Shown: one piece after another, positions 8,623-53,765 of the stretch | How positions within the stretch are numbered: position 1 is the first letter of the stretch | How the letters are laid out: every line of letters starts with the position of its first letter | Assembly (NCBI GenBank): GCA_050084985.1 | Contig: JBITNC010000001.1 | Coordinates: 100,998,001 to 101,062,000 of the forward strand | Origin: Nageia nagi | Taxonomy: Eukaryota > Plantae > Pinophyta | Reading direction: 5' to 3' | Length of the DNA stretch: 64,000 nt | Notes under the pieces: generated by a model | The model's input: only the letters and a program-made list of their open reading frames with translations | Told to the model about the DNA's origin: nothing | Database searches by the model: none | Position numbers and translations under genes: made by a program

Positions 8623-8624
8623 TT

Positions 8625-8636
8625 TGGTATCAGAGC
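8625..8636 (+). promoter_or_regulatory. Primer binding site (tRNA-iMet)
   Basis: TGGTATCAGAGC, 2 nt after the LTR. Confidence 0.95.
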
Positions 8637-8731
8637 TATCTATCTAATCTTTGTTATGTTTGACAAAGCCTATGGCTTCTTGCAATTGCAAAAGTTACTT
8701 GTAGAGTCTTGGTTTCTTATTTGCAGGTATA

Positions 8732-12900: not shown

Positions 12901-12925
12901 GTCCCTTTTGCATCAAGAGGGAGGA

Positions 12926-26440: not shown

Positions 26441-27524
26441 TTTGATCTAAAAGCTCGATAGCTCCTATGACTAAACAAAATTATTTTGAAGTATCTACAT
26501 ATCAATTCTAGTATCATTCCAAGAAAAATTATCTTAAATAATCTTCCAAACTATCATCTTATGATTATCTCCAAAAATCTCCTACTTGAATATAACTAAA
26601 ATTCTTCCCTCAAGAAAACAAGTTATCCACTAGCAAACTTTTAACCCCAACCAAATAAATGCACTCTTAATACATTACAAAATCCTAATTACTAAATCTC
26701 TATATTACATTCAAATATTAATTTACTTTCATTTGTAGATGTAATAAATACTATTTTAATACATTATTCCATTGTTAAGATCTCATTGATAGTCTATGGT
26801 CAACTGTAGATCACACTACAAAATAGCATACCTATTGACATGGCAAGCCCTAGGAACAACGAAACCTTTTAACTTACATCAATTAGTTCCAAATTGTAAT
26901 TTTGTAAATTTTGACACTTATGGGAACTATTTAATTTATTCAAATTTATACCTTTGCATGTTTTGAAAAAAAATAGCCCTTTGAAGACATGTGAAATGAT
27001 AAAACTAACATGGAGACCTTTTGTAATAGCCATTATTGCATTCTTGAAATCACAATTCCATTTTTTTATGTCAAGTTTTTGTATCCTACACATTGTTCAT
27101 GCGCATTAAATTTAGTAACTTCACTTTCATAATCTCAATAGATAGTGATTCTGAACAAGAAACAATGAGATCTTTTTTAAGCAGAAGCATTAAGCCTATG
27201 ACCATAAACTAGTTTGTTGTTGTTCATCTTGGTTGATAGTTTAGACTTAAAAAAAATTTCTTTCACAATTTGAGTGCTTTAGATACAAAAGGATGTTAAA
27301 AGTATCTAGTCTTATTTCTATATTGTTTGTAGCTTTAAGGATGTGATGTGCCTACACAACTCCCCCCCACCTAAATGTTAGCATTTTTGAGGACCCTCAT
27401 ATAACTAAAAAAGCATGACATGAAAATTTTCAAGTCAAATGCATGAGTGTCAAGCAAGAATGAGGATAAAAGTGGTAAAAATTGCATATTTTGATGAAAA
27501 CAAGTCCAAAACCCATTTTTCACC

Positions 27525-29273
27525 TTAGGCGCATGGTTTTGAGTGAGTCGTTTTGTACTCACCAAAAATTATGCATCTAGCCTTGTGTTGCATCTACCAT
27601 GGCTAACTCTGGATTTGTGCACTTAAAATCATGCATTTTCATGTCCTATTAACCCCCCATCATTAAAAGCATAACATTTTCCTCATTAGATATCATTTTA
27701 GGAACATTTTGGTCATTTTCAAAAAGTTTTGACATGTATCGACCTTAGGCGCATGGATTTTGTGTAGTGAAAAAGCACCCTCCTAAATTGGTGCACCCAA
27801 GGGATGGAACATTTTTACACTTAGCATTTTTTTCGAAAAAATAGCTTAAGTGCATGGTTTTTGAGAAGTGCTTTTGCACTCACCGAAAATGGTGTGCCTA
27901 CCCTTCATGAGCCTAAAAATTGGTTGTGTCGAAAATCTAGAGCATTCATTGTGGGATAAACAAGTGTTTCACCATGCATTAGGCCTTCATTTACATCAAT
28001 CAACATGTGACACCTATCCATTTGGAGGCACGGGCTATAAAAGGGGGGTCATGTTCATTTTATATGCATTTTGGGTCAAATGTTTCATGTACACCATCTT
28101 TTACATGTTAAGAGAGAAGGCACTACTTGAAATTGGTGGACCTCACTCCATAAGTTATTTTTGAACCATTTTTCCTATAAATTCACTTGATTTTGCACAA
28201 TTTAAGGCACCATAGAAGTTGTGTGCATGTTTCTTAACGGGTGAAAAAGCACCCATCCAAATTGGTGTGCCAACCTCCTGGATGTCCAAATCTAGGACCA
28301 AGGATTTTTTACTAAGTGTGAAATATTATATCTTGAGCCTAGGCACATGTTTTCTAAGGAGTGCAAAAGCACTCATTGAATTTGATGTGCCCAGATCCTG
28401 AGAGTGTGATTCAAGTAATTCTCTAATTGCTCCTAGACCCCAGGCACAAGGATTTGAAGGAGGGCAAAAGCACATGTTAAAAATGGTGCACCCATGATAA
28501 AAGGATCATTTTTATGAAAGTTTGAAATTGGCCAAGTCTTGAAACATAAGAAGCCTAGGCACATGGATCTAGAGGGATGAAAAAGAACTCATCCAAAAGG
28601 AGCAACCCCATTTCTTGCACATGTAGTGGACCCTACTTTTGACCAATCTCAAGATGATACATAGTAGGACCCAAAATCTATAAATACAAGGTCATCCTTT
28701 GCATTTCATTACTCAAAATCATTTTTTCCCAGACTCCCAAGTCGCAACATTTCCACAATGAAAAAGGATTGCCCAATAACGATGCGCCAAGGAGGAATAA
28801 GGATTTTTGGGATCATTTAACATCATTCTAAGCCATTTTTTTCTGGTAAGATGAGGGTAAGCTTGATCTAGTAAGGCATTTTCTAAAAATTACTTCATTT
28901 TTTTTTATACATCCCTACCCAACTTACCTAGCATGATTTCTACATAGTGCAAAAGGACTCATCCTAAATGGTGCACCTAAGCCTAGAGTGAGAAAGTTTG
29001 GTTAAGTATCAAAATTTTAGGTGCATTTCATCCCCCTTTCCTTCATACATTATAATTGATAAAAATTTAGGGTGCAATTTTTTTGTGTAGCGAAAAGGGA
29101 TTTATCCAAAATGTTGCAACCTAGCATGAAGTAATGACCAAACCATTCTAAATGATAAATTTTGTCCAAAGCAAGGATAAAAATTGATTGAAGTAATGTG
29201 TTCCTTTACCAGGTACCCAAGAGCATAATTTTCTGAGTGTGAAAAGGCACCCTCCCAGATTGGTGTATCCCAA
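27525..29273. repeat. Array of ~10-11 56-bp palindromic units with variable spacers (element A)
   Basis: Units at ~27525, 27745, 27846, 28219, 28339, 28440, 28555, 28925, 29068, 29218. Consensus CTAGGCGCATGG...GAGTGC(AAAA/TTTT)GCACTC...TGGTGCGCCTAG. Confidence 0.8.
28679..28686 (+). promoter_or_regulatory. TATA box for the element A ORF
   Basis: CTATAAATA followed ~25 nt later by pyrimidine-rich TCATT. GTAAG donor-like sites at 28846 and 28857 suggest a 5'UTR intron. Confidence 0.55.
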
Positions 29274-29581
29274 GAAAATTGACCTCAAAATTGGCTAAGT
29301 GTTGGATAGTCAAGAGTGAAGATATCAAGTAGACAAGTGGCACCCATGCATTATCCCAAGCATTTACACTCCATGCATCCTCTATAAAGGGGTTTTTCAC
29401 CATTTTATGCATGACATTTCATCCATCCCAACCTGGACATTTGGTCAACTCCCACTACCATAAGGATACATCCAAGATAGTGCACCTAACCTAGTTTGGC
29501 CCTTTTCAACCATTTTTTACTAGAATTTAAACCTGTTTTCACTCATTTGCCACCATTTCAAGAGAATTTTGTTGATTTAAG

Positions 29582-32500
29582 ATGAGTTCCAGGGTAAATC
29601 CCACCTCATCCAAGAGCAAAAAACTCTAAAAGTAGTTATTCAAGAAGCATGTGATTGAAGATCAAATGGAAAGGCTTCTAGAGACAACCATATAGAATTT
29701 TAAGAAAGAGAGAAACAAGAGCTCCTTGAAGCCAAATTCAAAGGAAGATTCACCTTTGTAAGTGACACAGATTAGGGTAACATGGATCATGTGCACACCA
29801 TTACGTCCACCTCTGATATCAACAAGGAAGATTTACAAGATGAAATTGTGCACACTTGTGGGTTTTTAATGTTGCCATGATAACATTTGTTGTTTCCTTT
29901 CCTGATGTGTGCTATGAAATGGTCAAGCACTATAAATTAGATAAGAGACGTCTCTTGGATACCAAAGGTAATGTGATCATGGACTTCACTTCAGCAGGGA
30001 TTGAAACTAATTTTGGGTGGAGAAGATACAAATATGAATACATTGAAACCCAATCTATTGAGTATCATGATAGTACAACTGAGCCCAGAGACTACAAAAT
30101 AAATTGGTTTTATGATGATTATCAAGGCATTCAAGGTCAAAAATTCGTTAGTGCTTGCAAGGAGGAATTCATCCCCACGGTGTCTAAGTTGATCACTCTT
30201 CTATCTTGGGTCACTGGATAGAAAAATGATACCAAGTAAAAGGAGTTTATTGGCGTCATAGTCATGATTAGCTCTGGGAGGGCTATAAGATGGAGTAGAG
30301 TAATCAGTGATGCTTTGTGCCACCAATTAGCTTATTTGGGCTCATCCAGAAGATTTTACATGAATTCTTACTTTGGTTTATTTACTGTTACATGGTAAAT
30401 TTAGATCCAAATCACATGCTAATGAAAGGCAATTGAGAAAGCAAGGCATCCCAGTGTGGAATGTCTATCCCAAGTGGTGGTATCACAACAGATTCAAGCA
30501 CTTTTACTTGAGGAATGATAAGAGGGAATGTGCTATATATAAGTTGATCAATGGAGAGTCTATAGTAAAGAGAATTTATGATTTAGTTTTCCAGGCCATT
30601 AGTGGGCATGCATATTTTTACCTACAGTATGTCGAACACACTTATATCAGACTATATGGCTCTAAGGAGTAAACTTTTCTTTTGCCCAAGTATGCTAGTG
30701 ACAGGCTAGTCCTCATGGAATTTTCTAGGCAATTGTTATTTTTGAAGGAAATAAGGTGCACAAAGAAGGATGCAATCATCAACCTATCAATTTCTATCAA
30801 CCTATCAAGCATGAGAAAGGAGCTGCAATAATATATCTTCTATAAGGATATCATTGTCAGATACTATGATCCCAGAGGTGTCATGGCCCATTTTTATAAT
30901 ACTGCTTTCCCAAAACCAATAGCATTCAAACTCTTATCTTTGGTAAATATGGAGAGAGAGGAATTTGAAGGATAAGAAGAAAATTGAGGAAATTTGTGCT
31001 CCTTTGAATAAGAACAAGTCTCTCCTCAAGCCTATGAGTAGAAATGTTGGACTACCTATATCCCAAAGGACCAAAAGTGTTAAGGAGAGACCCAAAGAGG
31101 TTCCACTCAAAATCAAGACATCTCCACCTAGCAACAATATACCAGCTTCATTGGTTAAGTTGTCTCCCTTACCTTCTCTTGGGAAGAGACATGAAACCCT
31201 TGGCCAACATGCTACAATGGGCATCACTAAACACAAGGAAGAGGCTAACATAGTGAAAATAAGTCAAGAGGTGGCTGATCTAAGAGATATTGGCTATATT
31301 AATGTCCCTTTGAGCATGTTAGAGCAAGTTTTTGTGCACCCCAAGGGCATTTGTGCTAATGACTCCCCTATCACAAAGACCAATGATGCTCCATAACAAT
31401 CTTCATACCTTCAAGGACACAAAAAGAAGATTCCCCCACTACAACCAAGTTACAATTCTTTCAATTCCTCCTCTTCTTCCTCAGATGAAGAAGATTTTGA
31501 TGAGTTAGGCTCTCATGATGAAGAGAGCCAAGATGAAGAAGGCCATAATGAGGAATATGGTGATGGAAAGAAGAGCTATGATGATGATGTTGAATCCAAT
31601 CCCTAAGATGATGAGTTTTACCTCTCATAGGAACAAAATGTAGTTGTAGGTGCTTTTGCACTAGATGACATGAAGAATGATACTCTCCCAAATGATGATG
31701 TAATTTTTGATGTAGAAAAGATGGATGAGGATGTCCAAGTCATTGGAGTGAAATATGCTAAAGAGGTGGGCACATCTCGAACTCATCCCACAAATCATAG
31801 GAAGAAATCACCCTCATCGTCGCAAAAGACCTGGTCTAAGAGGACCAACAATGAGATCCCCTCAGCCTCGCAGAAAAGTTCTATCATTAGGAGGAGGTGG
31901 TGGAGATGAAGAAAATGAAGGTGAGACAAAATAAGAAAAGAAGAAAAGGAAGCAAGATGTACACCAAGTAAAAGACGTTATCGTCATCTAGAACACTCCC
32001 ACAAAAGGGTTATTAAAAAGGTAAGAGTAGAATGCTAGTGCCAAGGCTCCCCTCTAATCCATCTACTGAACTACTCGAGCTTGACTTGGATGCCTGCTTA
32101 AGAGCTTTAAGCATGAGTACCGATCATGATGAGGATATAGATCCATATTTGAAGTCTAAGGATGAGAAGAGCTCTTTGATGGTGAGAAAGTATGAAGAGT
32201 GAATACTTATATTTCCACTAATAGGAAAGAGATCCTTGTCATCCATTGCTACTCCAAGGTGAAGCAACCAAGAGGACCCAAAGATTGCTTGATTGAAACT
32301 TTCAATATGCCTACTAAGTTAGGATTATCAACCAGAAAGCATATTGTTTCCCAAAATGCATTTAAAGTGGAGTAAAAAGGCTTTAAAGCCAAACATGAAG
32401 TAAAGAGATTGAAGAAGGAACTCACCGCCAATAAAAAAATGCTTAAGGAGTTTGAGGCTATGAGTATGACTCCTGTGGAACTTAGAAGACAGGCTTCATT

Positions 32501-33266
32501 CAATGTAGATTGGGAGGTAATGAAAGAATCCTTAACGAAGGAGATGATGGAAACCATTCAAAAACTAGCTTCTCAAACATATGGGCTCATCGAGGAAGGA
32601 GCTGAGTTGAGAGAGCTTAAGACACAAATATCCACCCTCCTCGAGAAGCTAGATGCTCATCTCCCTACTATTATCAATCTTCAAAGGATGTTTGTTGATA
32701 AGCCTAAGAAACTAGTCTACTGCCATGAATTTATGTACCAACATGACTAACTAAAGCATGCTTTTGACAAATGTCAAGTGGTGCTTAAAGCCATGGTGCC
32801 CTTGAAGGACATAAAAGAACAAATGACCTAGTATACTAATCAATTGAAGTTTTAAGGGGGAAATGGTGTACGAAAGAAGGAATCAAGCTTGGCCAAGACA
32901 CACAACCTAATCAAGGAGAATCTCAAGGTTGAAAACCTCAATCTTCTGAAGGTGGGGAAGCCTATCTATCATTAGAGATAGATGGTCATTCAAAGATTCC
33001 AAATGTAGGCTACATCTCAACAGATAAAGGGATTCTATAAGGAGAATAGTATCATTGTAAGCATGCTCTCTAGAGGTGTGAGGGAGGTCTTCGATTTCCT
33101 AAAAGAAACTATGGAATCTTACAGACTCACTAACGAGGAGAAAATTCTATGGGCCCCGAATCAAATCAGGCATAGATTTGATTTGCTTGCAGATTTTGTT
33201 TGCAATAGTCTTTTCAATTTGAATGCATATTGTTCATGGTTCTCAGATTTCATTTATTTGGTCTAA
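29582..33266 (+). pseudogene. Element A long ORF (~1200 codons, decayed): plant-transposon-like N-terminal domain, acidic/basic linker, coiled-coil C-terminus
   Basis: Consecutive + strand ORF fragments 29856-33266 are collinear with the element B protein (DFT..GI..F.W; RFYM.SYLV; TYIR.YGS; LP.YASD...MEF.R.L; YYDP.GV; YCH.F.YQ.D.L..A..KCQ). Confidence 0.8.
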
Positions 33267-34942
33267 CCAATGCAGGGATGAGTTTTTGCTCCCATTGGCT
33301 CAAATGTCAAACTTTATTCCGTATCTAATTTTATTTTGCATTGGTTAGAGATATATTAAACATTTTGCGGCTATGACATTTATGTTTTGTTAGCTTTTAA
33401 ATGTATCTTGCATAGATAGATGTGATGTGATTTTATTTGCATAGATATATCTATTGTGTGAGCATACCATATTAGATTTTATGCCTTTAGGGCAAAGCTG
33501 CATTTATTGCAGCTACTTTTGTGATCCCATACATATCCCACTTCAATCATTTAGAAGGGGATTTTTACTATTGAAAGAACGGAATGCTCAATTATGTTGT
33601 TGAAAGTATTTTGCAAAGATGATTTCTTTCTATAATAGTGCTTTGAAGAATGATATGAATAGTTCATTTCCTAAGATTATACATGTTATCTTGTAAGATT
33701 TTCTTACCAATTTGAATAATTTTTCTTGCTTAAGTGCATTCTCTTTGAAAACTTTTAGGGGAAGATAGTTGAATATCTTGTGAAGTAGTCTAAATTATTC
33801 ATTGCATAATTTGCACATAAGTATATGTATTATGGGGCAAATGTTTATCTCTATGTCATTCAGTTAGAATATGCATTCACAATGTTGGTCATTTCCCATC
33901 ATCTTCACTTCCATTGAGTAGTCCATCATAGACTGAACAACTTCATGCTCTCGTCTAGTAGCAACTTGAGCTTTGGTATTTGCTGCTAGGCTTGAAAAGT
34001 GAATACAAAATTTCTTAAGGAATTTGGGGGTGAACTATCAAGACACTGCATCATTGGTGAACATTTCATATGCTTATTTCTCATTCCATGCATGTATCCT
34101 CACATTTGTGATCTTTCTTTGTTTTCGTTCACATTTGTGATCTTTACTTGCTTTTAAGCACATTACTCGTGATTTAAGTCAGTCATGGAATCTCAACTAT
34201 ATAAAGGTTGACAGTATGCATCTCTTGCGATTGTGCATGAACCATATTCCATATGAGTGCTTAGGATGTAAAGTCCTTTCAGACAGAAACATGTAACGTT
34301 GTTTCCTCCAAATTGATTGGATGTTTTTGAAGAAAAGAAAAACATACCAACAAGATGTACAGGAGAATGAGTACGGCCTGTAATGTTAAAATCTTCTTTT
34401 TAGACCCTCGGAGAAAAGGTAAAGGACATGTTTGTTTCGACAATAGTACCAATGCTTACATGAAAAACATTTTCCAAAACAATTGGTCTTGGAACAACCA
34501 GGCATAATTTGATACACACTTCAAACATAATTTAAAGTTTAAACCACCTGCTATTGACCGCAAATTTGACCAAATTACAACTACTGTAACATGAGTATTT
34601 ATTAACTATTTTATCTTTAAGAAGGGGACACATAAGCTGAGAATAAATTTAATGAAAGAAATGGATTACTCTAGATTTCTTTCTGTTCAAAAAAGTATTT
34701 CATGATTGTAACAGAAAATGGCCACACCATTTACTTATATTAGTTTACAAGCTCATGACTACAGTACAGAAAGATACAATACAAAAAGGAAAGCCAGAAA
34801 CCCAAGGCCAAGGAAAGGTTAAATTTTCCATTCTCTCTCTCCATTTTTCTTTTTCTTTTTCTTCCCTGTTTAGACAATTTGATTTATATGGCCTCATTTG
34901 TTTCACCATATTCTTGTCTCCAACTAATTCTTCTTTCATTTT

Positions 34943-36740: not shown

Positions 36741-39700
36741 CTGTAAAATTCGTAAAAATCTAATATCTTGCATAAATATTAGAATAAGTAATGTTTATAC
36801 AATCTCGGTTTCAAATATAAAACAAGCAATAAAGAAGCATATTGCAAGTCTCTTGCATTTTTGAGGAAAGCATTCTGCATGATCCATACTAGCTACGCAA
36901 AAAAGTGTTTTACATGGCTATCACCAAAACATCAACTGTGGAATGGAATGCTTCTGAACTGTTAAATAAAATATTTTTTCTATGGAAAAATCATTTGTGA
37001 ATCATTCAACATATTTGAGCTCAAATTTCTAATTAAGGAATAGTATTAGGATATGATTGACTCAAAGTGGAGCTTTGAAATCAGTGGATCATCCTTCACA
37101 CTTGTTACACTGCAGCCTGTTTGGTGTGGGTTAGTGGCATCCTTGCTAACCTGGTACGCTATTATCATGCTTGCTTCTACGCACTACTCGTTGCAGTGAT
37201 GTCCTCAATCTAATTTCTTTCTTTCAAACTTATCATAAAAAATTTTGCATCTAGGCTTTAGGCAGCAAACCAGTTGCTAAATTATTTTTGTTGTGTTCAA
37301 ACTTCAATAATATTTGGCATTTCATTCGGATCAGAATTGATTTTCTTATGGAAAACAAGGTGCAAAGCTACCTTTGAAGATCACGTTACGCAGTTTACGT
37401 TGACAACAAGAAAGGTTTCAAAAAGGATATTACCTACCTGGTCAAATCACATTTTGCTCAGATGCAGAAAGATATTAAGACCCCCCAATTGGTGCCAAAT
37501 ATCAGGTACTTTCTTTCCTTTCATTCAATTCTATAGACTTGTCATGCTAATCATATGTTCAGATTTTGTAATATTCTTGCCAATTTGAAGTAATATAAGA
37601 TGCATTTTTTCAAAAAAGAGAAAAATAAAATTGCCTTGTACTGGTATACAGTTTCTAAAGGTAGAAGGTGAAACTATCAATGTAAAATCGAAAGTATTTT
37701 TTGAGAAGAAAATTGGCATGTAAGATGGTATTCCTCTGTTTTGCTATTATCTTTTTATACATTTGTATTTATTTGTTTGGGCTGTTGATGATGATGTACG
37801 CTTTAGATTTAAATTGCAAAAACTAATATCATGTCAAAACAAGAATGTTTCTCTTCTTTTAGAGCTAAGAAGAAAAATGTAAGTGTGAAACATGTTGCAC
37901 TGACCTTTTCCATGGCCTTACATTTCTTCTGCCCATCTCCCTCCTCATAGATTTTTGCTAATGAATCCTGGAAATATTGGGGTATTTGGCAGGTGAACAC
38001 ACAGAAAAATCAGCAGACTCTTGAAGAATTAACTGTGGAAATAATATTCCAGTTTGCTTGCAAGCTGAATGTCCATCCTGGGGAAGCCTAAATTTTTTGG
38101 ACCCTGCTTAGTCCAGATCTTCTTCTGAAGGTACAGCAGATTGTGTACATGCAAACACAAGTTCACCAATTTGTTTCTGGTTTTTATATTGAATCATCTA
38201 CTGGTACAGCTGATGATGGAATAACTCTGGATAATATTGAAGATGATGGATATTTATATTGCTTCTTCAACTGATAAGAAGCATTCCTTAATTGCTTAAA
38301 GTTTTCAAACACTTCTGATATTACTCTGAAAGCCATGAAGCATGACTCCATACGTAAGTAATGCTTGCTGTAATAAACTCTTAATATTCTTATGCTGGAA
38401 TTGGAGTCGGGCATTCAACAAGTTGATAGAAGAAGTGGACCATTGCACACAAAGTATGTAGAATTGAATAAACAAGATAAAACCAGATTTATTTGGAGCA
38501 ATAGCACTGCTAAAACCACTTATCAAATACTTTGTATTCTACACAACTTATTCACTTCTATTTTTGTATTTACTTTTTTGTTTTTTTAACTTGAAAAATA
38601 CACAACCAAAATAAAGATAAATCTAGCAATTCCAACATCCTCCCTTAATCCTTATTTATAGTAGGATGAGATACAAGAAATCGCAGAGTTTATTTAGAAG
38701 AGAGATGAGGAAGTTGACATTACTACAAAGATCCTCTCTTAATTTCAACTTCCATGAGACACACTGTCACAAAAAGTAGTCAATTGCACCAACAGCAACG
38801 GTTTGGTGCATATTAACCATTTATTTTTCAGTTTTGCAATAATTCAACTCTACCTCAGCACCTTCTATTCGAACAAAGTGATAATAGGATTCTTTGCTAA
38901 TTTGATGGATTTTTGTTTATCACAAAAATGATTGTTATATGCCTTTGTGGTAGGTTCACCTTAGTAAGCAACACAGCTTCTTGAAATCCCTTTGATGAAC
39001 CAATATACTTGTTTTCTACAGTTGAAAATGTTGTAGACTGCATCCTGCTAATCCATGTAATTGGTAGAGATCCTATGTGAAAGACAGCCCAAAGTAGATC
39101 TTCTACGAACAACATCACCTGCACAATTTGAGTCTATATCCTACAAGTGTAGACTCTCAATCAAACTTGTATTCAATTCCAAAATTATGTCTACCTCTTA
39201 TATATCTCAAAATAATTGTCAATATCTTCCAATGGTCTTCACATACATTTGCTAATGTAATGTTCCAAAATTTGTCCAACATTGTAAATATTTTCTTTTG
39301 TGTTTTGTATGTGTTTGAGCATTATTTAAGGTGTTTTGTCATATTTTGTAGTTAAAATGGAAGTTATATGGATTAATAAGTGTGTTTTGACAAGTTTAAT
39401 ATTAGTATATGGGTTAGGGGAGTTATTTAAGTATTTGGGAAGAGTTTTGAAATAAAAAAAAGCATTATTTAATGCTTTTAGATTGGTATACGTTTTTGAA
39501 ATATGTTTGAGTGTGGACAAAGTCTCTTCCTTCATTGTGTGGATCCCGATATCACTTAGGTGATTTCAACATAAGATTATATCACAACACTTAGATCATA
39601 AGTGAATGAGATCTAATCTTAGCCATCCATAGTCAAATCTAAGGCTGAGATCTATCCTCACATTAGGGTGTGAATATAGAAATGCTTTAGGGTTTCATTC

Positions 39701-40100
39701 AGACGATGTGATTTTGGAATTGAGAATTGGAGAATACTGAGTATTTTGGGGCTATTGGAAACTTCTGGTAGTGTCTCTAGAGAGATTTGGGGTTCCCATT
39801 GGAGGGAGCAATTTCATTGGAGGCTAGACCAGCTAGCTATCTACCCATTGGATCTAACAAATTTATTTCAGAATTTGTGATTTGTGCTTAAATTGTGAAG
39901 AGCAATTGGAGCTTAAGTGCAAATCTGCCATTGAGGGCAAGATAGAGGGCATTTTGATAAGGGTTTCAATCTGATCTCAACATCAAAGTGAGACGTTAGC
40001 TCTAGGAGGAGTGTTTGGAAGCTTTTGGAGGCATTTTGTGCCCTAACCACCATTCTAAAATGTGGCGTTTAGCATCATAAATATTGGGTTGGCAATTTTG

Positions 40101-42342
40101 TGTAATGTACCAAAATGCAAAAACAAACACCCAAAACAGATTTCTATGCAAAACAACATATCTGAAATATTTTTGGATTTTTTTTTTATTAATTTTTCTC
40201 TCACATGCAAAACCCTAACTGAAATTACAATAATTGGAAATGACATATCTTACATAATACAAACTGAAAATCACATCCAAATGATGAAACCAACCGTACA
40301 AACTCTAGATTTGCAACTTTGATCCCACAAGATGACTCCCAATTACTCCCTCCTATGACATCTGGCTTCCTGGTTGTAGATCTGCATCTCAAATCTGCAA
40401 AATTGGGCTTTTAGGGCTAACATCTTGTGACGTCCTTTTTGTGTTCCGAACAACTTTAGTGGATTCTTGAGAATCCCATTGTAATATAGGTTTATGTTAT
40501 GTTATTCTTCCATATTGTAACTCGGGATAGGAGACTATTGGGTCATTGACCCCCATTGTGAGCCCCAAGTGGGACGCCTTCCTCCTGTGGAATAGCATAG
40601 GAGATTTATTAGTGTAGGCTCATTATGCATGCGTCAAGCCAAGAGTGGCCCCACGTCCACCCTAGGAGACCTAGCAACACCTTGAGGCCCCACGTCAGCC
40701 TTCCTGTGACCTCCGTGCATGCATGGCACTTCCGAGGCACACGCTAGCTGTTTGAGCATAAGGAGGACCCACTTGGTATGTTTGGACACTTGAACACCCA
40801 CGTTGGGCATTATGGGCCCCTTAGTTGGTCAACGTTGGAAATAAAGGAGAATTGGTGACTTTGAGGCAGGAACACAACGTGAGATTATAAATAGATCTTG
40901 GAGGCTCATTTAAGGACAGCTATTAATGATTACTTCTTTTATTTGACTTCCGGACCGCAAGTCTTAGCCAGGGATGAGCAATTCTACCTAGACGGAGCAT
41001 CTAAAGGATGATTTGGCTCAGGGATCCTAATTGTCTTGACTTGGTGTAGCATCAAGTCCATCCATTGGCATCCGAGGGTTCCATTCCTTCCATTCAATTG
41101 GATTTCCAATGTTTGAGAGCCCCTTCGTTGGGAAGGAGTCGAGGGCTAAGGGAGTGAATTTGTCCCATTTTTCTGAGTTGCCTTTGTGATTGATTGTGTA
41201 TATCCGGCCGTTTTGAAGAGGCCACAATTGCCATTTGGCTAATGTAATTGTCTCCATTGAATAAACATATCATTGAGGATTCCTATCCATTCTTGTGTTA
41301 TGAATGATCATTGCATGCATGCATTGGTATGGGGTGAATGCGTTATTTGTATTGCTCTTATTAATGATTGATTAGTAAGGAGGGCTGACGTCAAGCTTGT
41401 GGAGTTCTTGGGAGCCCTAGAGTCTCAACATTGGATCTTGGAAGATGTGTTGAGGGTTTTGGAAACCCTAGCCAGGTTTAAATTGATGTATTTGGCACGA
41501 GTGTTCATTTGGAACATTACACATCCCTCCGTCTAGGGTTATTTTGACCCTCCAATATGAAAATAGCCCTCTCCTAGGGCTAACGTCCCTCTCCAAGGAC
41601 TTCTTTCAGCTAAATCAATGCTCAAAATACATCAATCTTGCCCTCCAATTGGTTGATATGATCTTTGTTCCTGTTATGCTTTGCCCTCCAGTAGGCAGAA
41701 TTGCACTTATCCTCATTGTTGCTCCAAGTTTATGCTCAAATCACAAACCCTGAAATGAATATGTCAGATATGGATGGGTAGAAAGCTAGTTGGCCTAGCC
41801 TCCACTGGAATAAATCCAATGGGAACCTCGAAAACTCAAAGAGATACTTCCAACTATCTCCAAGAGCCCAAGAATTCTTCGAAATCCTTCCAATTCAATA
41901 TCTAACAACAACAAAAATGAAGTGTTAGATTTCTTTTATTCTCTTACCCTAATGCCAAGATAAATCCCAAGCTTAGATCTAATCATGAAGGGTTGAGATT
42001 AGATCTCGCATACACAAGATCTAAGGGCTACGATATAATCTTGCATTGAGGTCACTTAAACATATTACAAAAACGTCTACCCAACTAAAAGCATAAATTA
42101 ATGGCCTTTTCTAACCCAAAACACTCCCAAATACTTAAATAATTCTCCTAACCCATATACTAAGATTTGACTTGCCAAAACACATCTATTAACCCTTATA
42201 ACCCCCATTTTAACCACAAAATATGATAAAATACCCTATATGATGCCCAAAGGCTAGACAACCCTTGCCAAGAGACCCACAAATACATAATAAACACAAA
42301 AGAAATTATTTTACAATGCTAGAAATAATTGGGGACATTACA
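40101..42342 (-). mobile_element. Solo LTR Y nested in B
   Basis: TGTAATGT...ACATTACA 8-bp TIR; TSD TTTTG/TTTTA; reverse-complement relative of X. Confidence 0.88.
40426..41521 (+). mobile_element. Solo LTR Z (1096 bp) nested in Y
   Basis: TGTGAC...ATTACA; TSD CATCT/CATCC; TATAAATA ~40887; CCACGT motifs. Confidence 0.9.
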
Positions 42343-42819
42343 TTTTAGGTGTTTTTGGAGAGTTTTGAGGTGTCCAGGAGCTTATTTTCTATCTTAGCAG
42401 CCACACGTCCAGCCTAGGGGAAGAGAAATTTCAGATCTAGGGTTTTTGGGACAGACATTGACATCTCAACCTTTGAGAAGACATGTTTTGACAAGCTGGA
42501 GATGTTTTGAGGTGCTTTTGTGTTTAAGATACCTTTTGTTGTGCCCACACAACACACCCCAAGATGCAACATTTTGGGAACCCTACTGTTTTTGAATGCA
42601 ATGGATGACAGTACCTAGAGGTGACTATACAACGGCTAGAGAAAAGAGTCAAAGCGGCCAAGTGATGAAGCAGTGCACACAAATACCCATAGAGGCACCA
42701 AGTCAGTTCAGTGTGTCCAAGGGCCATTCATGGTTCGGTTTCAAGCAACATCAAGTAGGATGCAGTTTTGGATCACGGCAGCGACTAGGAAAGAAGTTTT
42801 TCACCAAGCGACCAACAAA

Positions 42820-43480
42820 GCGTAAAAAGGCGCATTTTCACAACATTTTAGAGCAAGACTGGCAGAGTTGATGAAAAAGAACATTTTTTCAAGAAATGAG
42901 CTCATAGGTGCCTAGCATCACAAAAGGCATTTTTTTGCAAAATTGGAGCACAAAGGTACCTAAGTAGCAAAAATGAGCATTTTTGTCACTTTTGGGTCCG
43001 GGTGCCTTGAAAATGACAAGGATGACAAAAATGGACATTTTTGTCAAAGTTGACCTTGGAAAGCTAGAAAAGGGCAAGGTAGAAAAGTGCGTTTTGGTCA
43101 CTTTTGGGCCCGAAAATGCTCAATATGGTAAAAAAGGTGCATTTTGCACGATTTGAGTCTAGAAAGCTCAGAAATGACTAAAAGTAGTGAGTTGAGCCAT
43201 AATGGCCAGAAATGCTCAAAAATGTCAGAAATGCCAGAAAAGGTCATTTTTTCACACTAAGGGCCTGGAAATGCCGGAAATGGGCAGAATTGAATACTTT
43301 GAGCCCGGAAAGGTAGAAATGGTCGTTTTTTCACCATTTGAGTTCGAAAATCATTGAAAATGCAAAGTTTGAGCTTTGACGGTGTCAGAAAACGCGTTTT
43401 GATCGAGTTTGAGCTCGGAAACGCCGAGAGTGATCGAAAATGCATAGATTGAATCTAGAATGTTCGAAAATGCAAGTTTG
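42820..43480. repeat. Degenerate ~45-55-bp repeats with AAAA-N4-5-CATTTT motif and phased A/T tracts
   Basis: Motif at ~42825, 42873, 42920, 42969, 43027, 43083, 43131. Confidence 0.6.
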
Positions 43481-43489
43481 AGTAGCCTT

Positions 43490-44975
43490 AGCCCCAGGCA
43501 CATTTTCCCAAGGTGTTGAAGATCCAAGTGAGAAAAATGGTGCATGTTTCTTATAGATAACTACAAATGATATCAAAATTCGAGTCTAAGAGTGTATTCG
43601 GACAAAAAAGGTGAATTCTATCACAGTTTAGGCTCAAAATTTTCAATTTTGACCAAGTCTATGGCACTCTGAAGCTACGCGCAGTTTTTCAAGCCTATTG
43701 GAAATCCATAGAGATGCATTTTGGTGCCTAGATAGTAAATAAAAAGTGGAAATGCATCAAAAATAAAATCTAAATGCATGAATGAGTGGAAAAAATGGTT
43801 TTAAGCCACATTAGGTCTCAAAATTTTTGGTTTTGAGCAAGTAAAGACCCCCAATTTGCTAGGCGCAAGTTTTTAGATGTTTCCAAAACCATTGAAGTGA
43901 AAAATGGCACCTAGGTTGACAAGATAGGATCATTTTTTACCAAAAATCAAGTTTAAGTGCTTGGGAACAAGGAAAACGTGATTGCAAACACATTTAGGTC
44001 TCAAAATTTTCGATTTTGAGCACATTTGGCCACCCTAAAGGCTACGCACAAGTTTTGAGAGCTATGGAAATCCAATGAGGTGAAAAATGGTGCCTAGGAT
44101 CAAGGAATTTGATAAATTGTGGTCAAAATTCAAGTTTTAGGGGTCTACAAGGTGTAAAATGTGATTTCTAGCACATTTAAGTCTTGAAAAATTCGAAAAT
44201 GAGCAAGTTTTGACCCTCCAAATGCTAAGCGCAAGTTTGCAAATGTTTCAAATTCCATAGGGATGAAAAATGGCGCCTAGCTTGGAGGGATAAGTGAAAA
44301 ATGCACTAAAATTTGATCCCAAGGTGTCAATTGCATGGAAAACCCCATTTGGAGCACATTTGTAACTACAAAATTCGAATTTTGAGCAATGGAAAGGCAC
44401 CTAAAGGCTAGGCACAGGTTTTCATGCCATTGGAAATCCAATGGAGTGAAATCTAGCACCTAAGATGGAAATATTTTGCAAATTTTGCTCAAAACTCAAG
44501 TGTGAAGGGTCCATTGGGTCAAAAACATCATTCTAAACACATTTAAACTTGCAAACTTCCAAATTTGAGCAAGGGAAGTGGCCCAAAATCCTAGGCGCAG
44601 GTTTGCTAATTTTTCTAAAACCAATAAAGTGAAAATCAGCGCCTAGCATGAAGAGTGAAAATTTTGCAAACAAATCAAATTTTTTTCACATGGTTGCATG
44701 GAAAAGGGCATTCTAAGCATGTTTAAACTTACAAATTTTCAAAATTGAGCACTAGAAATGCCCCAAAAAGTCAAGTGCAGGTTTCCAAGCCATTGGAGAA
44801 CCCAAAAATGAAAATTGGTGCCTAGATGCAAGGAGAAAGCCCCAAAAGCCATCAAAATTCAATTTTGGGCATATAGATGGGTGAAGGAAGTGATTTGAAT
44901 CACATTTAAACTTTGAATTTTTCCATTTTGACCCAAGGAAGTGCCTCAAAAAGCCAGGCGCAGGTTTGCAATCCT
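43490..44975. repeat. 183-bp tandem array (8 full units + 1 partial), each with CTAGGCGC-N40-GCGCCTAG
   Basis: Left arms at 43494, 43675, 43859, 44042, 44225, 44408, 44591, 44771, 44954; alternating subtypes. Confidence 0.9.
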
Positions 44976-45083
44976 ATGAAGTGTTTAAAGGCTCCAAAAA
45001 CTTAAAAACTATGCAAAATGCACCCCTAGAGCATTTTTTAGGTCACAAACCCACTAAGAAGCATGCAAAAGGCACAAAAAAAC

Positions 45084-45089
45084 TATAAA
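45084..45089 (+). promoter_or_regulatory. TATA box for the element B ORF
   Basis: CTATAAA then CTCATTTG ~20 nt later. Branch-like CTAAC (45810) and CAG acceptor (45831-45833) just before ATG 45843. Confidence 0.5.
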
Positions 45090-45842
45090 CACCCCCCTAA
45101 GCCTCTCATTTGCTCCACAAACACTCTCCTTGAACCTCCATGCACCCATTTTTGAGTAAAATCCTCACAAACCCTTACAAAATTGCTCAAAAACTTCAAA
45201 ATTGCTCACAAGATCCAAAATAAGCCAAAACCTTGTCAAAATTTTTCAAGGATCTTAGAATTCCATTCTCTATCCACCCATTAGGTCAAATCCATTTTTT
45301 AAAAAATTTCAAAATTTCAAACCCCCTTAACTTTTGGCCATTTTCAAACTTTTTGAAAAAAGGTGAAAAAACACAAAAAAACACTTTTTTCAAGGCTAAA
45401 AACTCCAAAATTTTGAATGATCCAAACTTTGAAGTGAATACCATAGTGATAGATCCCATACAAGAGAGTAGCCTCCATCATTCACTTCTCCCGAACAAAG
45501 CTTGAAAACCCACTTTGCATCCCCATATTTCCAAGCTTTGAAGCTGCAAAAACTTGTCAAAAAACGAATACATGGGCTAAAAAAACAACGAGCTAATTCA
45601 AACCCCGAAAACTCAAAATTTTTCTCAGAGACTTGGCCACAAGCCTCCTAGATTTATTAGCCAACATCCCATGTACTTGTTTCCCACTTTCGAAGAACTT
45701 CAAAATTCTCGAAAATCCACACTTGAAATCTAAAAAAACTAAAAATAAGCCAAAAATTTGACTCTGTTTTTTTGCTCCAAAATCACTCCGGAGATACCCA
45801 ATACCACTCCTAACACCTTGTTGTACTCCACAGGTTTGAATC

Positions 45843-48800
45843 ATGAGCATTGATAAGAAAAACAAAGAGCTCCAGATGGAGAAGCTCATGAAGACTAGCC
45901 TGATCACCCTAGAAAAACGAGGCAAGGCTCTCTTCCCTACAGCTATGCTAGTAGATGGCCTTGGACAAATCAGGGACATAGATTGGGCAAACACTGACCC
46001 CGTTAAGTCATTAGAGAAGATGGCCAAGATCCCACACGAACGACTATTCAATGATACACTTGCTCAATGCAGGATCGTTGAAGCTTCTTTGATCCCTTTT
46101 ACCGCTCCATTCCCAGAACTATGCCTCGAGGTAGCAAGATATTGCGACACAAAGGAGAGAGTCCTCAACAATGAAGGCACAAAGATACTAGATTTCACAA
46201 TGGAAGGAATAGATAGCGCATTTGCATGGAGTAACGAAGGCATCATATTCTCCATGAAAGAGTTCGTCAGATTCTATAACAGCTTGACCAAGCTGGGGAA
46301 TTTGATAAGAGACTAGCTAGTTGACGAGTGCAAAGATTAAAAGGCAAAGGCCTTAAGTCAACCCAAAAGGATAGACTTCTATCCTACAATCTCAACCATT
46401 ATCAGTATGTTGTGCAGAATCATGGACAAGAAAATGATCAAGATTCAGAAAGGAGTTTGTGGGTTTCATACATCATATCAACAGAGGCAAAGGGATCAGA
46501 TGGAGTAAGGTGATCAGCAACTGCTTAACTCAACAATTGTTTAGAATTGTAGAAACAAAGAGATTCTACATGAGCTCTTACTTAGTATTCCTGTTCTACA
46601 TGGCAAGAACAGAAAATCCACCATAGCAGATACCAAGTACCTCTTTGACCCAGGAATGCCAATATCGTGGACTTACCCTAGATTCATGTTGGAAAACTAG
46701 TGGGACGAATTCAAAATGATGAATGAAGGATTTGAGTGCTATATATATATAGAGGTAAAGGGGACCGTCAATATGACCAAGATATCACAAGCAGCAATCC
46801 AAGTTCTTCAAGGACATGCAGATTTTTATCTTGAAGAAACAAATGCCACATATATCAGGGTTTACGGGTCAATTGAGCCACCTTACAAACTTCCTCGTTA
46901 TGCAAGTGATTGGTTCATCTTGATGGAATTTTGCAGACACTTGTCGTACTTACATGAAAAAGTTTGGTGCAAAAAAGGTGGCACCACGTGCAAATTACCT
47001 ATCCACATAGGGGAGTACGAATGCACGTCATGGCATCAAGTCAAGACAATGAAGATGGAGTTGGCATATTACGGCTTCACAGTAGAACATGCAGTAGAGT
47101 ACTATGATCCTGAAGGTGTAATCGATGCATTCTACAAAAAACCTGGCAAACCGATTACCCTCACAAGTCCCTAGGAAAACTCGAAAGATACAGAAATATA
47201 GATGACATTGAGCAAATCAGCAAGATAAACAGGGACTTGGCAGCAGAAGAGAAGCTCAAGCAGACCGTGACCAAGAAGAAGAAGAAAAGAGGTCTGCAAG
47301 AGGAGAATGCAATAGCCAAGATACATCCTTTGATAATCCTTAAAAAGAATCCCCTGATTCCGTGTGAACCGCCACCAATTTCACCTTCAGTGAGATTGAC
47401 ACTGGGGTAGTTTGGTCAATATGCCACACTCATTGTTCAACAAAGGAAAACTATTGATCAGACCATACAGGGATTATTGCAAGAGATAAGAAGCACTAAA
47501 GAGACTGGAAGCACTTCGCATCCATACAAACGCTTAAAAAAGTAGGTGGAAGTCCCTCCCAAATGTCCATCCCAAGATGGACAATTATATTATCTTGGCC
47601 CTAGTTCTCTTACTTCTCCTCCTTCTAGTGACAGCGAGGATGAATATGACATTGACGAAGGAGACCTCTTGAGAGAACCCTTAGAAGATGGCCAGACATC
47701 TGAAATACCTTACATCTCACGCAATGAATCAGATTCATCAGTCGAAGAGATACAGACCATAAGTCCTCTTACCATGGCAGAACTCGCTCAAGCAACAAAA
47801 CCTACACCTACACGAGCTTCCACACCTCAACAACCAAAGAAGACACCTCCACCTTAGAGAAAACCTACATCACTTGCTTCAAGAAGGACCCCATCATCCA
47901 AGGCAATAGCTTCCTCATCAAGAGGGGACGAAGGAAATGAAGAGAATGAAGGTGAAGATGAAGACCAGAGGAAGAAAAAGAGAGAGGAAGAACATCAAGG
48001 GAATCCAAAGAGACAAGTGACTATAGTTGCCAATCCTGGGCTGAGTTACAATTTCGACATGGCGGTGCTCTTAAAAAACTTAAGAGCATAGCATCCATCC
48101 AAATCCCTTGCCGACCTTGAAACCGATCAAGAATCAGAGAATGAACTTGAGCATGTAGCCACTTACATCTCGATGAAGGGTAATTCCATTGTCACAGATA
48201 CTATTGCTGCAAGAAGGAAAAAGAATGTTGATGGAGAATTTGCATTAGTGGTGGAAACACGAGAAGAGCCATGTAAAGCAATCGGAACTTTGGGCAGGCA
48301 ACATGCAATAGTTTCTAATGTTGCAGCGCTGACAGAGGAGAACACATCACAGAAGGTAAATTGGTTGAAAAGAGGAAGTTGAAAGTTGATATCCAAGCTG
48401 CTAACCTAACAGTTGAAGACATCAAGAAGTAGATCTCGTTGAATACGGGGATTCAAGCGGTCAAACAAGAGTGGATTAATCAGACCAAAGAGGCTATTCA
48501 AGAGTTATTCCTAAGAATAACTAATTTCTTTATTGAAGACAATGGATCGTTCGTCACTCAAGATAGGATCCGTGAACTGATTGCTAGTTGAGGCAATAGT
48601 TATCAGGTGATGCATGAGCTAAGAAGGAAAGCTGTCGGCATGCCAATAATACCGGAGTACTGTCATCCATTCTTTTACCAATATGATTGGCTATTCTATG
48701 CTATTTCAAAATGTCAGGATTTCATCCAAGTCCAAACAAATTTCAAAGCGGACATGAAGAAACAGCTAGCAAAATACCAATTTGATCTAAGGTTGATCGA

Positions 48801-49107
48801 GGAAGATGGACGCAGCAGGGACTATTCCACAATAATAAATGAGGTCCAGCTGATGATCAACACTTACCTCGAAACTGAAGATATTAATGTCCTCAAATCT
48901 AGCAAACGGCTCAAATATGGTAGCAATATGGCAGTATGGTGTAGCGAAATGAAGAAGACTTCAAAGACCATCACCACATATCTGTTGGCAAATAAAGGGA
49001 TAATGGAGATCCTCAACACCGGAGTCAAGAACAAAGAAATCTTCATTGGCACAAACTTCAAGGCCACCATCGCATCACATGTGCAAACCACAAATCAGCC
49101 ATCGTAA
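45843..49107 (+). pseudogene. Element B long ORF (~1090 codons, several stops and frameshifts)
   Basis: Fragments 45843-46316, 46716-47174, 47546-47857, 48173-48382, 48607-49107 are collinear with the element A ORF. Confidence 0.85.
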
Positions 49108-49308
49108 TTTTTGTCATTTTCGAAAATTTTGTAAATCAGTCAACCAGGAAAGTTGAGCACCAAAACTCGATTAACTTTGCTCACATGATCAGTCAGCCTG
49201 GTAAGTAGATCACCAAAAGTCAGCAGACTTAGTTGTAGCAGGCAACTATGTAATATTTTAATATATTTTTATAGAATTAGGGCAACACTTGGGAAACCCT
49301 AGAAATTC

Positions 49309-49316
49309 TATAAATA
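49309..49316 (+). promoter_or_regulatory. Second TATA box (LTR U3-type promoter) of element B
   Basis: AAACCCTAG...CTATAAATAG, preceded by a ~35-bp direct repeat (49134/49187) and followed by an R/U5-like 1-kb tail ending in CA. Confidence 0.6.
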
Positions 49317-52300
49317 GACCCAATGGGGTCACTTTTATAGAGATTGAAAGTTTGGATCTTTTCAAGGAATGAAAATTTTGGGAACAAGTTCAAATTTTTT
49401 GTAGGAGAAAAATTGTGAAAACTTTTTATGTAACTCTTGTACAAAGAAAATACAAAGTGGTTAATGCAAAGACTTGAGTTTGACACTCTTCATATTGATG
49501 ATATGAATTGATTCTTTGAGGGCACTCATAGTTGGTTTGTTTACTTTCATTATATTACTTTGAAAGCTCTTGGGCTTTAGGGAATTTATCTCTGAAAAAC
49601 ATTAAAAAGTGCTTGAAGCCTACCTATGTTTGTTGCTTGGTACTTAGCGTGCAAGTTTATTGGGTATTCTATGTCAGTTTCTACTTCTATGACATCTTGT
49701 TAGGTCCTTCATCCAAAACTATGATCCATTCACTTTGAGACCTTCCATTTCCATTCAATTGAATTGATCCTATTCGTAGAGAACCGACAATTGGCATTCC
49801 TCCCTGCTCCTCTTTGAAGCATTTCGAACGTGAAGTTGTTTGCTTGCAAGGTTGGATGAATTGGATGAAGAGTCCTTAATCGATCCAGAAGACATTAACT
49901 CTTAGACACTTTCCCATCAGTGAACCTCAACCTCATATCTAACCAGGTATTCTTTCCTTCTCCAAGCTATTTTCCATCACCTCTTTATAGTATTTACCTT
50001 TATGCTTTCATACCAAATATGATTGTTAAATACACACACAAAAGCTCCGAACAAACTCTATACATCAAAGAATAAAACATCATTGGTTAACAGACTATAT
50101 ACCTCTCATTCCATTCCATTGAGGCTGATTCCAAAGAGGGATACCGCACATTATTTCTATATCTATCCCTATTCAGAAAACACACCAGGTGAACAAACCT
50201 TACAATATCACGACGTTGGGGTCGTTGGCAAAGTGTTTCAACAAGAGCCTTGGACGTACACAATCCTTTTCAACCGGGGGAATTGGTAATGCATTCCCAA
50301 CTATGTTGCTCGAGATCTCGTAAGTTCCGCCCGCGATATTCAGAGTGTCCTGTACGGGAAAGAAAAGCATCCCAACACCTTCTTTTCATGTTGTTATTTG
50401 TTGTAGGTTGCAATAAGGGTTTTTGTTGAAGGAAAAATAAATAAAAAATTTAGAGTTTCATATCTATGTTTGTTTGCTATTTTCTTGTGTTTGGAATTTT
50501 TGTATTTGGTGTGTTTCAGCTATGTACTTAGAAATAACACATTTTACTGAAAGATACACAAGGCTACCAACAAGTTGTCTACACAATGTGCCATTGACTT
50601 TCTTTGAAGAAGACATAACACTCAACTTCATCCCAACCTTAGAAGGTGTAGTTACAGGCTTACAATCAAGCATTGTAAATTTCTTCAACACATTTAAGGC
50701 ATACATAGATTTAGAAAGCATAGGTCTACCTTATTACTACCAAACTTGCATAGTCAAAAAATAGTGCATCAATCCCAAGCCTCTCATCTTAAAAGTTTTC
50801 TCCAATTGTGCTTTAGTGTCAATAATAAGTGGCAAATAACTACCTATAATTATCAAATCATTGACATACAAGGCAATCATAAGGATGTGGCCATCACAGT
50901 TCATCGCATACAAATCGAGATTCTTGCTCCTAAATCCTACATGCAATAAATCCTCATTAGTTTTATAGTACCAAGCGCTTGGAGCTTGTTTGAGGCCATA
51001 TAATGATTTCTTCAACCTAAAGACAAATGTCTTCACCATGTTGCATATAAATATCCCCTACTAAATCATCATTCAAGAAAACAATCTTCATATCTATTTG
51101 ATGAATTTCCTTGCCAAATTTTGGAGCTAAAGCATTAGTACAAATTGTAGTCATCATTGCAATAGAAGTAAAAGTCTATCAAATCTATACATTCCTTTCA
51201 TGAGAAACCATTGGCCACCACTCATGCTTCTCCACTTCTCCTTCAGATGTGAATTTGGTCTGATAATGCCACTAGCTAAGTTTTCACCCTTCCAAAGTGT
51301 TGTCCATATCATTCTTCATCAAAGAACTGTAATCATCCTCCATTGTTGATTCCCATTTGAGATTTCATATTGCTGCCTAGTATGCTTGTAAATTTCTTGA
51401 ATACTCCTTGCTTTACTAGAGATTCAACATCATCATATTGTATATCTTTAGGAAAACTTGATTCGCCTAAAGAATAAGTCTCTACAAGATTTTAGTTGGT
51501 GTCACTCTAGACTCTAAACAAATTCATTTTAAGCAACCATTATAGGAAAGGAAGAGTGTTTTCTTTGAGAAATGTTATCATCAAGAAAAATAGAATCTTC
51601 ATCAGACAACACATCTCTCTTAATAAGAATTTATTTTGTTTGAGGATAATGCAACTTACATGCTTTGGACTTCTCACTATATCTAGTCATAATGAACTTC
51701 ACTCTTCTAATCTAGCTTTGATCTTTTCTTATCTGGAATAATGATGTAAGCACCAGAACGAGAGACTCGAAAATATGAAACATGTGTTATTGTATTGTTT
51801 GCTTCAAGCCAAAATTTAAGATCCATTTCTTAAAGGGCAACATGCACCTAGCAATCTCCATAAAGTGCCATTTTTTCTTTCTACCACCCATTTTGTTGTG
51901 GTGTACAAGCAATAATGGATTCTATTTTATTCCTTTATCTTAATTCAAGAAGGCACATATTCTCCACTAATATCTGTTCTAATTATCGTGACAAATTTTC
52001 CACTTTGGTTCTCAACTAGTGCAATGAATTCTTTGAATCAATCAAACAATTTACTCTTTAGGAAATAAACCCATATGTTTCTACTATAATTGTCAATGAA
52101 TGAATGTATGAACATATCATGAACCTATAAGTGATTTTGCATTGGACCTAATCGAATCACTGTGCACTAATATTGAGGAATAATGGCTCTTCCGTATGAT
52201 TTTCCATGCACGTAACTCTTGACATGTTTTCCCATGGCAAAACCTTTACAAACAAGCCTTTGTAATATTCTTGGAAAACCATGAACCATATTTCTTCGAC

Positions 52301-53509: not shown

Positions 53510-53765
53510 ACTCTTAGACCCACGTGGCACCTTGGACTCCAACATTGGCATGCATGGCAAGTTGGACACCCAAGTTGGCATGCATAGCACGTTGGACACC
53601 CACATTGGCAACCATGGCACCTTGGACTCCCACATTGGCAACCATGGCACCTTGGACTCCCACATTGGCATTTATGACCTCTAGGTAACCACGTTGGGCA
53701 TGCTTGACCCCTAGGCACCCATGTTGGAGATCTTGGGCCTCCAAGAGGCTAACGTTGAGATTAGG
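53510..53765. repeat. 30-bp tandem array in the LTR H promoter region
   Basis: ACCATGGCACCTTGGACTCCCACATTGGCA is repeated exactly at 53611 and 53641 (first 30 nt), with degenerate copies on both sides. Confidence 0.9.

Follow-up and report, generated by a model that had tools for sequence, protein, structure and literature searches.

A 7.8-kb insertion in conifer DNA that may be a solo long terminal repeat with an accessory, possibly anti-silencing gene in its U3 region

Retroviral open reading frames (ORFs) of the U3 region, such as sag of mouse mammary tumour virus, nef of human immunodeficiency virus and bel of the foamy viruses with its internal promoter, place an accessory gene in both long terminal repeats (LTRs); they are small or merely overlap U3. 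In plant LTR retrotransposons, as described in the accessible portions of the papers cited here and below, extra ORFs are located in the internal region (PMC7264820, PMC11963269, PMC3485330, PMC6431247). In the Ogre/Tat/Athila (OTA) group of Gypsy elements, which have long LTRs, tandem arrays, PMD-type extra ORFs and 5-bp target-site duplications (TSDs) (PMC6317226), these ORFs precede gag or follow pol, ahead of the 3′ LTR; what the extra ORFs and tandem arrays do in plant LTR retrotransposons has yet to be settled (PMC7264820, PMC11963269). The rice families Retrosat2, RIRE3 and RIRE8 have LTRs of more than 3 kb and an extra ORF of unknown function, ORF0, which precedes gag-pol and is not reported within the LTR; their solo LTRs exceed complete elements 2.6 to 1 (PMC3485330). 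VANC proteins bind short motifs tandemly repeated in their own element and remove methylation (PMC5735166). They are described as dicot-specific and MuDR-encoded (PMC13547354), and their DUF1985 domain resembles the PMD (10.1101/2024.09.27.615353; PMC13547354), which is present in 57% of Ogre elements (PMC6317226). Here we describe element B, a 7,841-bp insertion in 64,000 nucleotides of DNA from the conifer Nageia nagi (assembly GCA_050084985.1, contig JBITNC010000001.1, positions 100,998,001 to 101,062,000 of the forward strand; hereafter, the window). In our preferred reading, B is a solo LTR left by a conifer retrotransposon, and its U3 houses an accessory gene that is probably anti-silencing; we put the probability of this reading, structure and function taken jointly, at about 0.5.

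Element B occupies positions 42537..50377 on the plus strand and is likely a solo LTR bounded by TGTTG and CAACA. Its 5′ start, TGTTGTGCCCACAC, directly follows CCTTT (42532..42536). At the other end, CCCAACA closes at 50377 and is followed by CCTTC (50378..50382), so that the two TSDs agree in four of five letters. An empty-site joint from 42530 to 50377 was found in contigs of all four runs (2, 2, 1 and 1 contigs, with shorter sides of 25–67 letters), five letters fitting both sides. These contigs are copies of the host LTR, X, lacking B. In run X1 the depth rose several hundred-fold, from 9 at 42524–42531 to 4,503 at 42532–42539. In the four runs, 18, 16, 13 and 9 contigs departed exactly at 42537, with dissimilar flanks (agreement 0.40–0.45). 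The joint, the depth step and the departing contigs therefore define B as a single 7,841-bp insertion. TG...CA termini with a short inverted repeat and a TSD of 4–6 bp are those of an LTR retrotransposon, and B has both; 5-bp TSDs occur in 93.4% of plant LTR elements (PMC6317226). An earlier note, made from the sequence alone, had B run from 40056 to 50377 (about 8.1 kb after removal of two LTRs, Y and Z, thought to be nested in it) with the TSD CATTC/CCTTC. That start was ruled out: 40056 is inside X, as are the segments 40056–40100 and 42343–42536, and the joint and the depth give 42537. Both Y and Z lie upstream of B, nested in X, and CCTTT/CCTTC replaces the earlier TSD. An ordinary short LTR at 49250–50377 with the ORF internal to the element was also ruled out, as no copy of it is found at the 5′ end of B.

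The corrected 5′ end brings B closer to element A (27344..34352, plus strand, 7,009 bp), which has B-type termini, the TSD GGATG/AGATG (again four of five letters) and a homologous ORF from 29582. The 5′ terminus of A, TGATGTGCCTACAC at 27344, matches that of B at 12 of 14 positions, a likeness overlooked before, which strengthens the link already drawn between the two. The terminal letters are TGTTG/CAACA in B and TGATG/CAACA in A, and of the ~19 nt at the 3′ terminus said to be common, 17 match. The conserved 5′ terminus of B (42537..42592, plus strand), with a small inverted repeat at 42557–42578, is common to A and to related units without an ORF. Both termini are kept in A, in the units termed C, D, E and F, and in the related loci L122, L125, L126, L127 and L129. 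Over its first ~45 nt (window 42537–42585) B has a run depth about ten times that of its body; this terminus is thus common to many more families than B's own. DNA similarity between A and B is generally scant, as had been stated, except for three ORF patches of 59–65%. The proteins can indeed be aligned end to end: four blocks, 25–51% identical, reach from the N-terminal domain into the C-terminal region.

From 5′ to 3′, B consists of the terminus, a low-complexity stretch, a repeat array, a TATA box (TATA 1, 45083..45091, plus strand), the ORF (45843..49107), a second promoter and a tail of about 1 kb. The proposed order of array, TATA box, long ORF, second TATA box and tail is thus borne out. 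TATA 1, kept in the closest relative, L121, is from its sequence the putative promoter of the ORF. The second promoter (49277..49316, plus strand), probably the LTR promoter, comprises a TTAGGGCAACAC box at 49277 and TATA 2 at 49308, about 1.07 kb before B ends. A, F and L127 have this box downstream of their ORFs, and the ORF-less units C and D have it as well; TATA 2 of A is degenerate. In all six ORF-bearing groups with a post-ORF region (B, A, L122/L129, L125/L126, L127 and unit F), a TTAGGG plus TATA promoter stands ~130–280 nt past the end of the ORF. An intron acceptor had been claimed for both A and B. In B, a 5′ untranslated region intron at 45285..45833 (plus strand) is plausible, with a weak GT donor, a CTAAC branch point, pyrimidines and a CAG acceptor, and the branch-point/acceptor stretch ahead of the ATG is identical to that of L121 over 40 of 40 nt. 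It is not a shared feature, since in A/L125 and in L128 the TATA box stands ~200 nt ahead of the start codon.

The array (43494..44990, plus strand) has a period of 183 bp, with a secondary one of 366, and each unit holds inverted arms that we predict to be binding sites; an example is CTAGGCGCA, then a 36–38 nt spacer, then GGCGCCTAG. With a loose dyad pattern picked after the arrays had been seen, the 2.56-kb 5′ region of B gave 7 dyads as compared to a mean of 0.8 and a maximum of 3 in 30 shuffles. The same pattern counted 8 in A, 7 in L121, 5 each in C and E, and 1 each in D and the tail of B; neither ORF (A or B) had any, and the remaining 48.7 kb of the window had 5. Between lineages the arms are kept while the spacers differ. 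In the short unit C (L126 15250–16030), a ~48-nt motif is a near-perfect palindrome including its spacer, whereas in B the arms alone are inverted.

The ORF of B (plus strand, ~1,090 codons) is decayed, with 9–10 in-frame stops and frameshifts near 46460, 46630, 47150 and 48380. Its product would have a folded N-terminal domain, an acidic, proline-rich middle and a helical C-terminal region. A profile search gave 279 representatives at E ≤ 0.001, mainly fragments. Unbroken homologues include P0001 (758 aa, 84% identical to the third segment of B) and P0009 (838 aa), and in Taxus chinensis related pieces are annotated as hypothetical proteins (KAH9296670.1 and others). ORF homologues of 855–2,440 residues numbered 0 of 3,684, which is weak evidence. 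A metagenome scan confirmed at least nine loci among 585 candidates; these are the L-numbered relatives. Together with A and B they form at least five lineages, with 32–56% identity between groups.

Codon comparisons, all pairwise and between natural copies, gave ratios of nonsynonymous to synonymous substitution (dN/dS) of 0.09–0.24 in the N- and C-terminal parts. Between B and L121, over the N-terminal 434 codons, dN/dS was 0.09 (confidence interval, CI, 0.07–0.13) as compared to 1.42 and 1.15 in the shifted frames. Other pairs gave 0.23 (L122/L123), 0.22 (L122/L129, C-terminal), 0.10–0.21 (L125/L126) and 0.19 (L125/A, C-terminal part); in the N-terminal L125/A segment, which has a frame change, the best frame (0.24) is a shifted one. 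Non-coding controls put through the same comparison gave 0.54–0.99. Differences between A and B fall at 67% of third, 39% of first and 35% of second codon positions; dS is saturated for A/B, for L121/L122 and for one L125/A segment. Two caveats apply. The acidic middle shows little constraint (dN/dS 0.69, CI 0.39–1.15, and 0.40), and the JGI contigs may be assembler-merged copies; merging would lower the apparent decay and would not create a third-position bias. These data show that the ORF is a genuine gene that evolved under purifying selection. The idea of an old, selected design is thereby supported: the ORF is found in at least five lineages, placed ahead of the same promoter, with ratios in its terminal parts well under 1.

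Structure models were made for the first 470 residues of the L121 homologue (pLDDT 80.5) and for its residues 50–315 alone (pLDDT 78.5). Among 48,161 solved chains, the sole match at Z ≥ 5 was VANC21 bound to DNA (9lnk_A). The longer model matched it with Z 6.5 and a root-mean-square deviation (rmsd) of 4.8 over 235 aligned residues, the next chain reaching 3.1. The domain model gave Z 6.8 and rmsd 4.2, with 220 of 266 residues aligned and the next chain at 2.7. The corresponding part of the ORF of B, with a VANC21-like predicted fold, is 45990..46790 (plus strand). Several results weigh on the other side. The match is middling, with Z under 8 and 9–10% identity, and a Z in that range may reflect a common arrangement of structural elements. 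Foldseek returned nothing at E ≤ 0.001 against the PDB and viral models and missed VANC21; its top chains, when re-compared, gave no Z ≥ 2, a check that is blind to folds missed by Foldseek. The Pfam families PMD, DUF1985, Transposase_28 and ATHILA had no match in 100 aligned members, nor did the VANC/PMD profile (DUF1985, PF10536) in the segments of B or in 41 homologues. A PDB sequence search of the ORF protein found no match, Rfam nothing relevant, and the ESM Atlas no usable match for the Taxus homologue P0044. Because of the gap to the next chain and the coverage, and despite the low Z, we consider homology to the VANC21 domain likely, not certain. The most fitting view is that the ORF protein belongs, remotely, to the PMD/VANC-type accessory proteins and that it likely targets the array.

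This comparison favours an anti-silencing function. Like B, VANDAL21, the Arabidopsis Mutator-like element that encodes VANC21 (PDB 9lnk), joins an element-encoded gene to tandem arrays of short motifs in its own non-coding DNA (PMC5735166). Such arrays are present in B, A, L121, C and E, as predicted targets. B differs from VANDAL21 by its conifer host, its TG...CA ends, its motif (two arms with a 36–38 nt spacer, as compared to a 9-mer for VANC21) and the lack of a DUF1985 match. Moreover, VANDAL and Mutator-like elements have longer TSDs (~9 bp) and a MuDR transposase, whereas the TSDs here are of 5 bp and neither A nor B has a transposase ORF.

The same solo LTR could, however, encode something other than an anti-silencer: a transactivator, an RNA export or packaging factor, or an integration-targeting factor, with the array as an enhancer or nucleosome-positioning element. 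A period of 183 bp is indeed close to the nucleosome repeat, and a middling fold match says nothing on function. It has been proposed that the accessory ORFs found in plant LTR elements work in the manner of retroviral accessory factors (PMC7264820), and direct DNA binding by host PMD proteins is not yet demonstrated (10.1101/2024.09.27.615353). Yet the one structure matched belongs to a sequence-specific anti-silencer, and a gene beside its own motif array, together with ORF-less units that keep the array, is the VANC/VANDAL arrangement. We consider a different function unlikely.

The 3′ part of B bears on the LTR structure. The U5-like tail (49450..50377, plus strand), which ends GAAAGAAAAGCATCCCAACA, is 82% identical to those of L122 and L129, two loci that match B at only ~52–55% in the N-terminal domain. 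Identity of B to these two loci rises from 26–58% to 84–86% at ~49440, ~140 nt past TATA 2, whereas L122 and L129 remain alike on both sides of this point. Loose contig ends fall at 49449 in two of the four runs. The lineage-swap point, ~49440–49449, thus lies directly downstream of the second promoter, within the putative R region (49340..49460, plus strand; AAATACAAAG at 49448). Transfer of the growing strand within R, from one co-packaged RNA to another, is established for retroelements and yields the U3 of one lineage with the U5 of another. The tail swap of B fits such a template switch, which we infer to have occurred here. Units C and D, an older and noisier pair, have a common promoter region and diverge ~60–100 nt past the TATA box.

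Our model is as follows. The LTR would have grown to 7.8 kb by housing the repeat array and the conserved accessory gene in U3, with U3 from 42537 to ~49340, R at ~49340–49460 and U5 in the remainder. Transcription from TATA 2 would give the genomic RNA and from TATA 1 the accessory mRNA, and reverse transcription would leave the gene in both LTRs. The U3 and U5 of B would come from different co-packaged RNAs joined by strand transfer in R, and the internal region would have been lost by recombination between the giant LTRs. The VANC/PMD-like protein may bind the array dyads and act in trans, so that the promoters of its own element escape silencing; ORF-less units may retain the array to exploit protein supplied in trans. 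As no pol was seen, an Ogre/Tat/Athila-like Gypsy affiliation is a guess.

An ORF within the LTR, as the earlier note had it, is the best reading of the structure and on its own a probable one; it is unproven, since neither a two-copy element nor a PBS or PPT junction was found. These results, with the solo rate given below, weigh against it. No full-length element, in which the unit would stand twice around an interior having a primer-binding site (PBS) and a polypurine tract (PPT), was found. Among the short contigs, a small short-read sample, a PBS followed none of eight intact 3′ ends and a PPT preceded none of five intact 5′ ends, leaving aside the damaged 3′ end of C and the truncated nested 5′ end of L128. 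The TGG past the 3′ end of L127 is presumably gag coding sequence of the surrounding element, judging from its motif. Protein scans for a full-length element confirmed 0 of 16 and 0 of 177 candidates from viral contigs and 0 of 105 from prokaryote genomes. A 16-nt terminal pattern hit 120 stretches in viral contigs, apparently by chance, and longer patterns hit none; the one stretch that had passed a longer pattern was discarded, being inside an unrelated reading frame. Picea has few solos, one per 4–5.6 complete elements, and in P. abies LTR length makes no difference to this (PMC5751070). With solos that scarce, 0 of 13 ends would arise by chance with a probability of ~5e-4, by hand arithmetic and with ends that are not independent.

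The 0 of 13 ends would be expected if the TG...CA unit itself moved as a whole, either by means of a Gypsy-type integrase or Ginger-like transposase provided in trans or by way of a circular or tandem intermediate. Long units would then be the source of the VANC-like protein, and the short ones would be derivatives with internal deletions, like those of DNA transposon families. The dissimilar flanks at 42537 across 56 contigs, the ends common to short and long units and the occurrence of VANC in DNA transposons agree with this. On the other hand, the terminal inverted repeat is just 5 bp, and no unit with a transposase or integrase was seen. A promoter ~1 kb from the 3′ end with a sharp tail swap downstream fits U3-R-U5, and the adjacent ordinary LTRs X and Z (~1.2 kb) look solo too. 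Movement of the unit by itself is in our view rather improbable.

The short ORF-less units C (2.6 kb), D (>1.7 kb) and E, nested in the relatives' loci, have both ends, array and promoter. Such LTR-like units, and the frequency of nested insertions in these loci, could suggest that the ORF came separately, as a cassette that repeatedly entered ordinary LTRs by insertion or recombination and that was either a VANC-type DNA transposon or the 3′ internal part of a different element. Unit C, however, resembles the ORF-bearing L128 in its TATA 1 region and the ORF-bearing F in its post-ORF part, as a deletion of the ORF would give. Lineages only 32–56% identical share the position of the ORF ahead of the same promoter box, and reading B revealed neither termini nor an inner TSD flanking the ORF, although no dedicated search was made. 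Repeated entry of a cassette is therefore very improbable, and we retain the solo LTR with its gene in U3.

Compared with the elements described above, such an LTR would be distinctive. At 7.8 kb it is longer than the LTRs of OTA elements, which reach ~5 kb (PMC6317226) or 6.5 kb (PMC6431247), and its ORF is inside the unit, not internal to the element. The rice families resemble B in having long LTRs and an extra ORF. Unlike the retroviral cases, B is a plant unit holding a whole ~1,090-codon gene plus the presumed target array. In mostly non-subscription literature, leaving aside Repbase and Dfam, we found neither a complete gene described within a plant LTR nor a gymnosperm retroelement said to carry a VANC-like gene; the accessible portions of PMC12859917 and PMC13477047 hold nothing on such a layout.

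A gene in U3 outlasts solo-LTR formation, the host's chief route for removing such elements. If the model is true, each solo LTR remains a working source of the factor, which short ORF-less units parasitise, and VANC-type anti-silencing reaches from dicot DNA transposons to gymnosperm retrotransposons, which bears on why conifer genomes retain so many elements. In the boldest form, the unit would be mobile by itself, without an internal region. That this is a widespread conifer retroelement group with a self-targeting anti-silencing module (protein, promoter and dyad array) inside the LTR is a tentative proposal that we hold with less than even confidence. The family offers a direct test, with a conserved protein of predicted VANC-like fold and a candidate motif repeated beside its gene. 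For annotation, units of 7–8 kb without pol or a Pfam domain are likely overlooked by LTR finders.

Members of the group are nested in other members at L126 13744–16326, L126 775–3007, L122 1–1687 and near 2661 of L128 (all on the minus strand); all four are in the opposite orientation to the host's ORF. At L129 3062–3950, a relative adjoins exons that, recognised by eye, we take to be the 3′ end of a sulfite oxidase gene. At L127 4179, an ORF-bearing unit ends within what is presumably, from its motifs, the gag-protease region of a chromovirus-type element.

The window is AT-rich plant DNA dense in repeats, with copia and hAT remnants. The 5′ part of X (39256..42536, plus strand), delimited with the empty-site contigs, contains Z and Y, and X resumes from 50383 to ~50538. 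LTR Z (40101..42342, minus strand; TSD TTTTG/TTTTA) is nested in X and is a relative of it (66% alike). It holds LTR Y (40480–41521), which has TG...CA ends and no clean TSD (CCCAT/CATCC). Two LTR pairs lie at 8102–13446 (86%) and 15462–22691 (83%), with Met-type PBS-like sites at 8621 (plus) and 21755 (minus), respectively; the first pair encloses a copia gag match. Remnants of a hAT-type transposase occupy 57435–59302 (minus strand; DUF659 match, E 8e-19). A tandem repeat at 53525–53671 has 4.9 copies of a 30-bp unit whose motif is related to LTR Y-type sequence.

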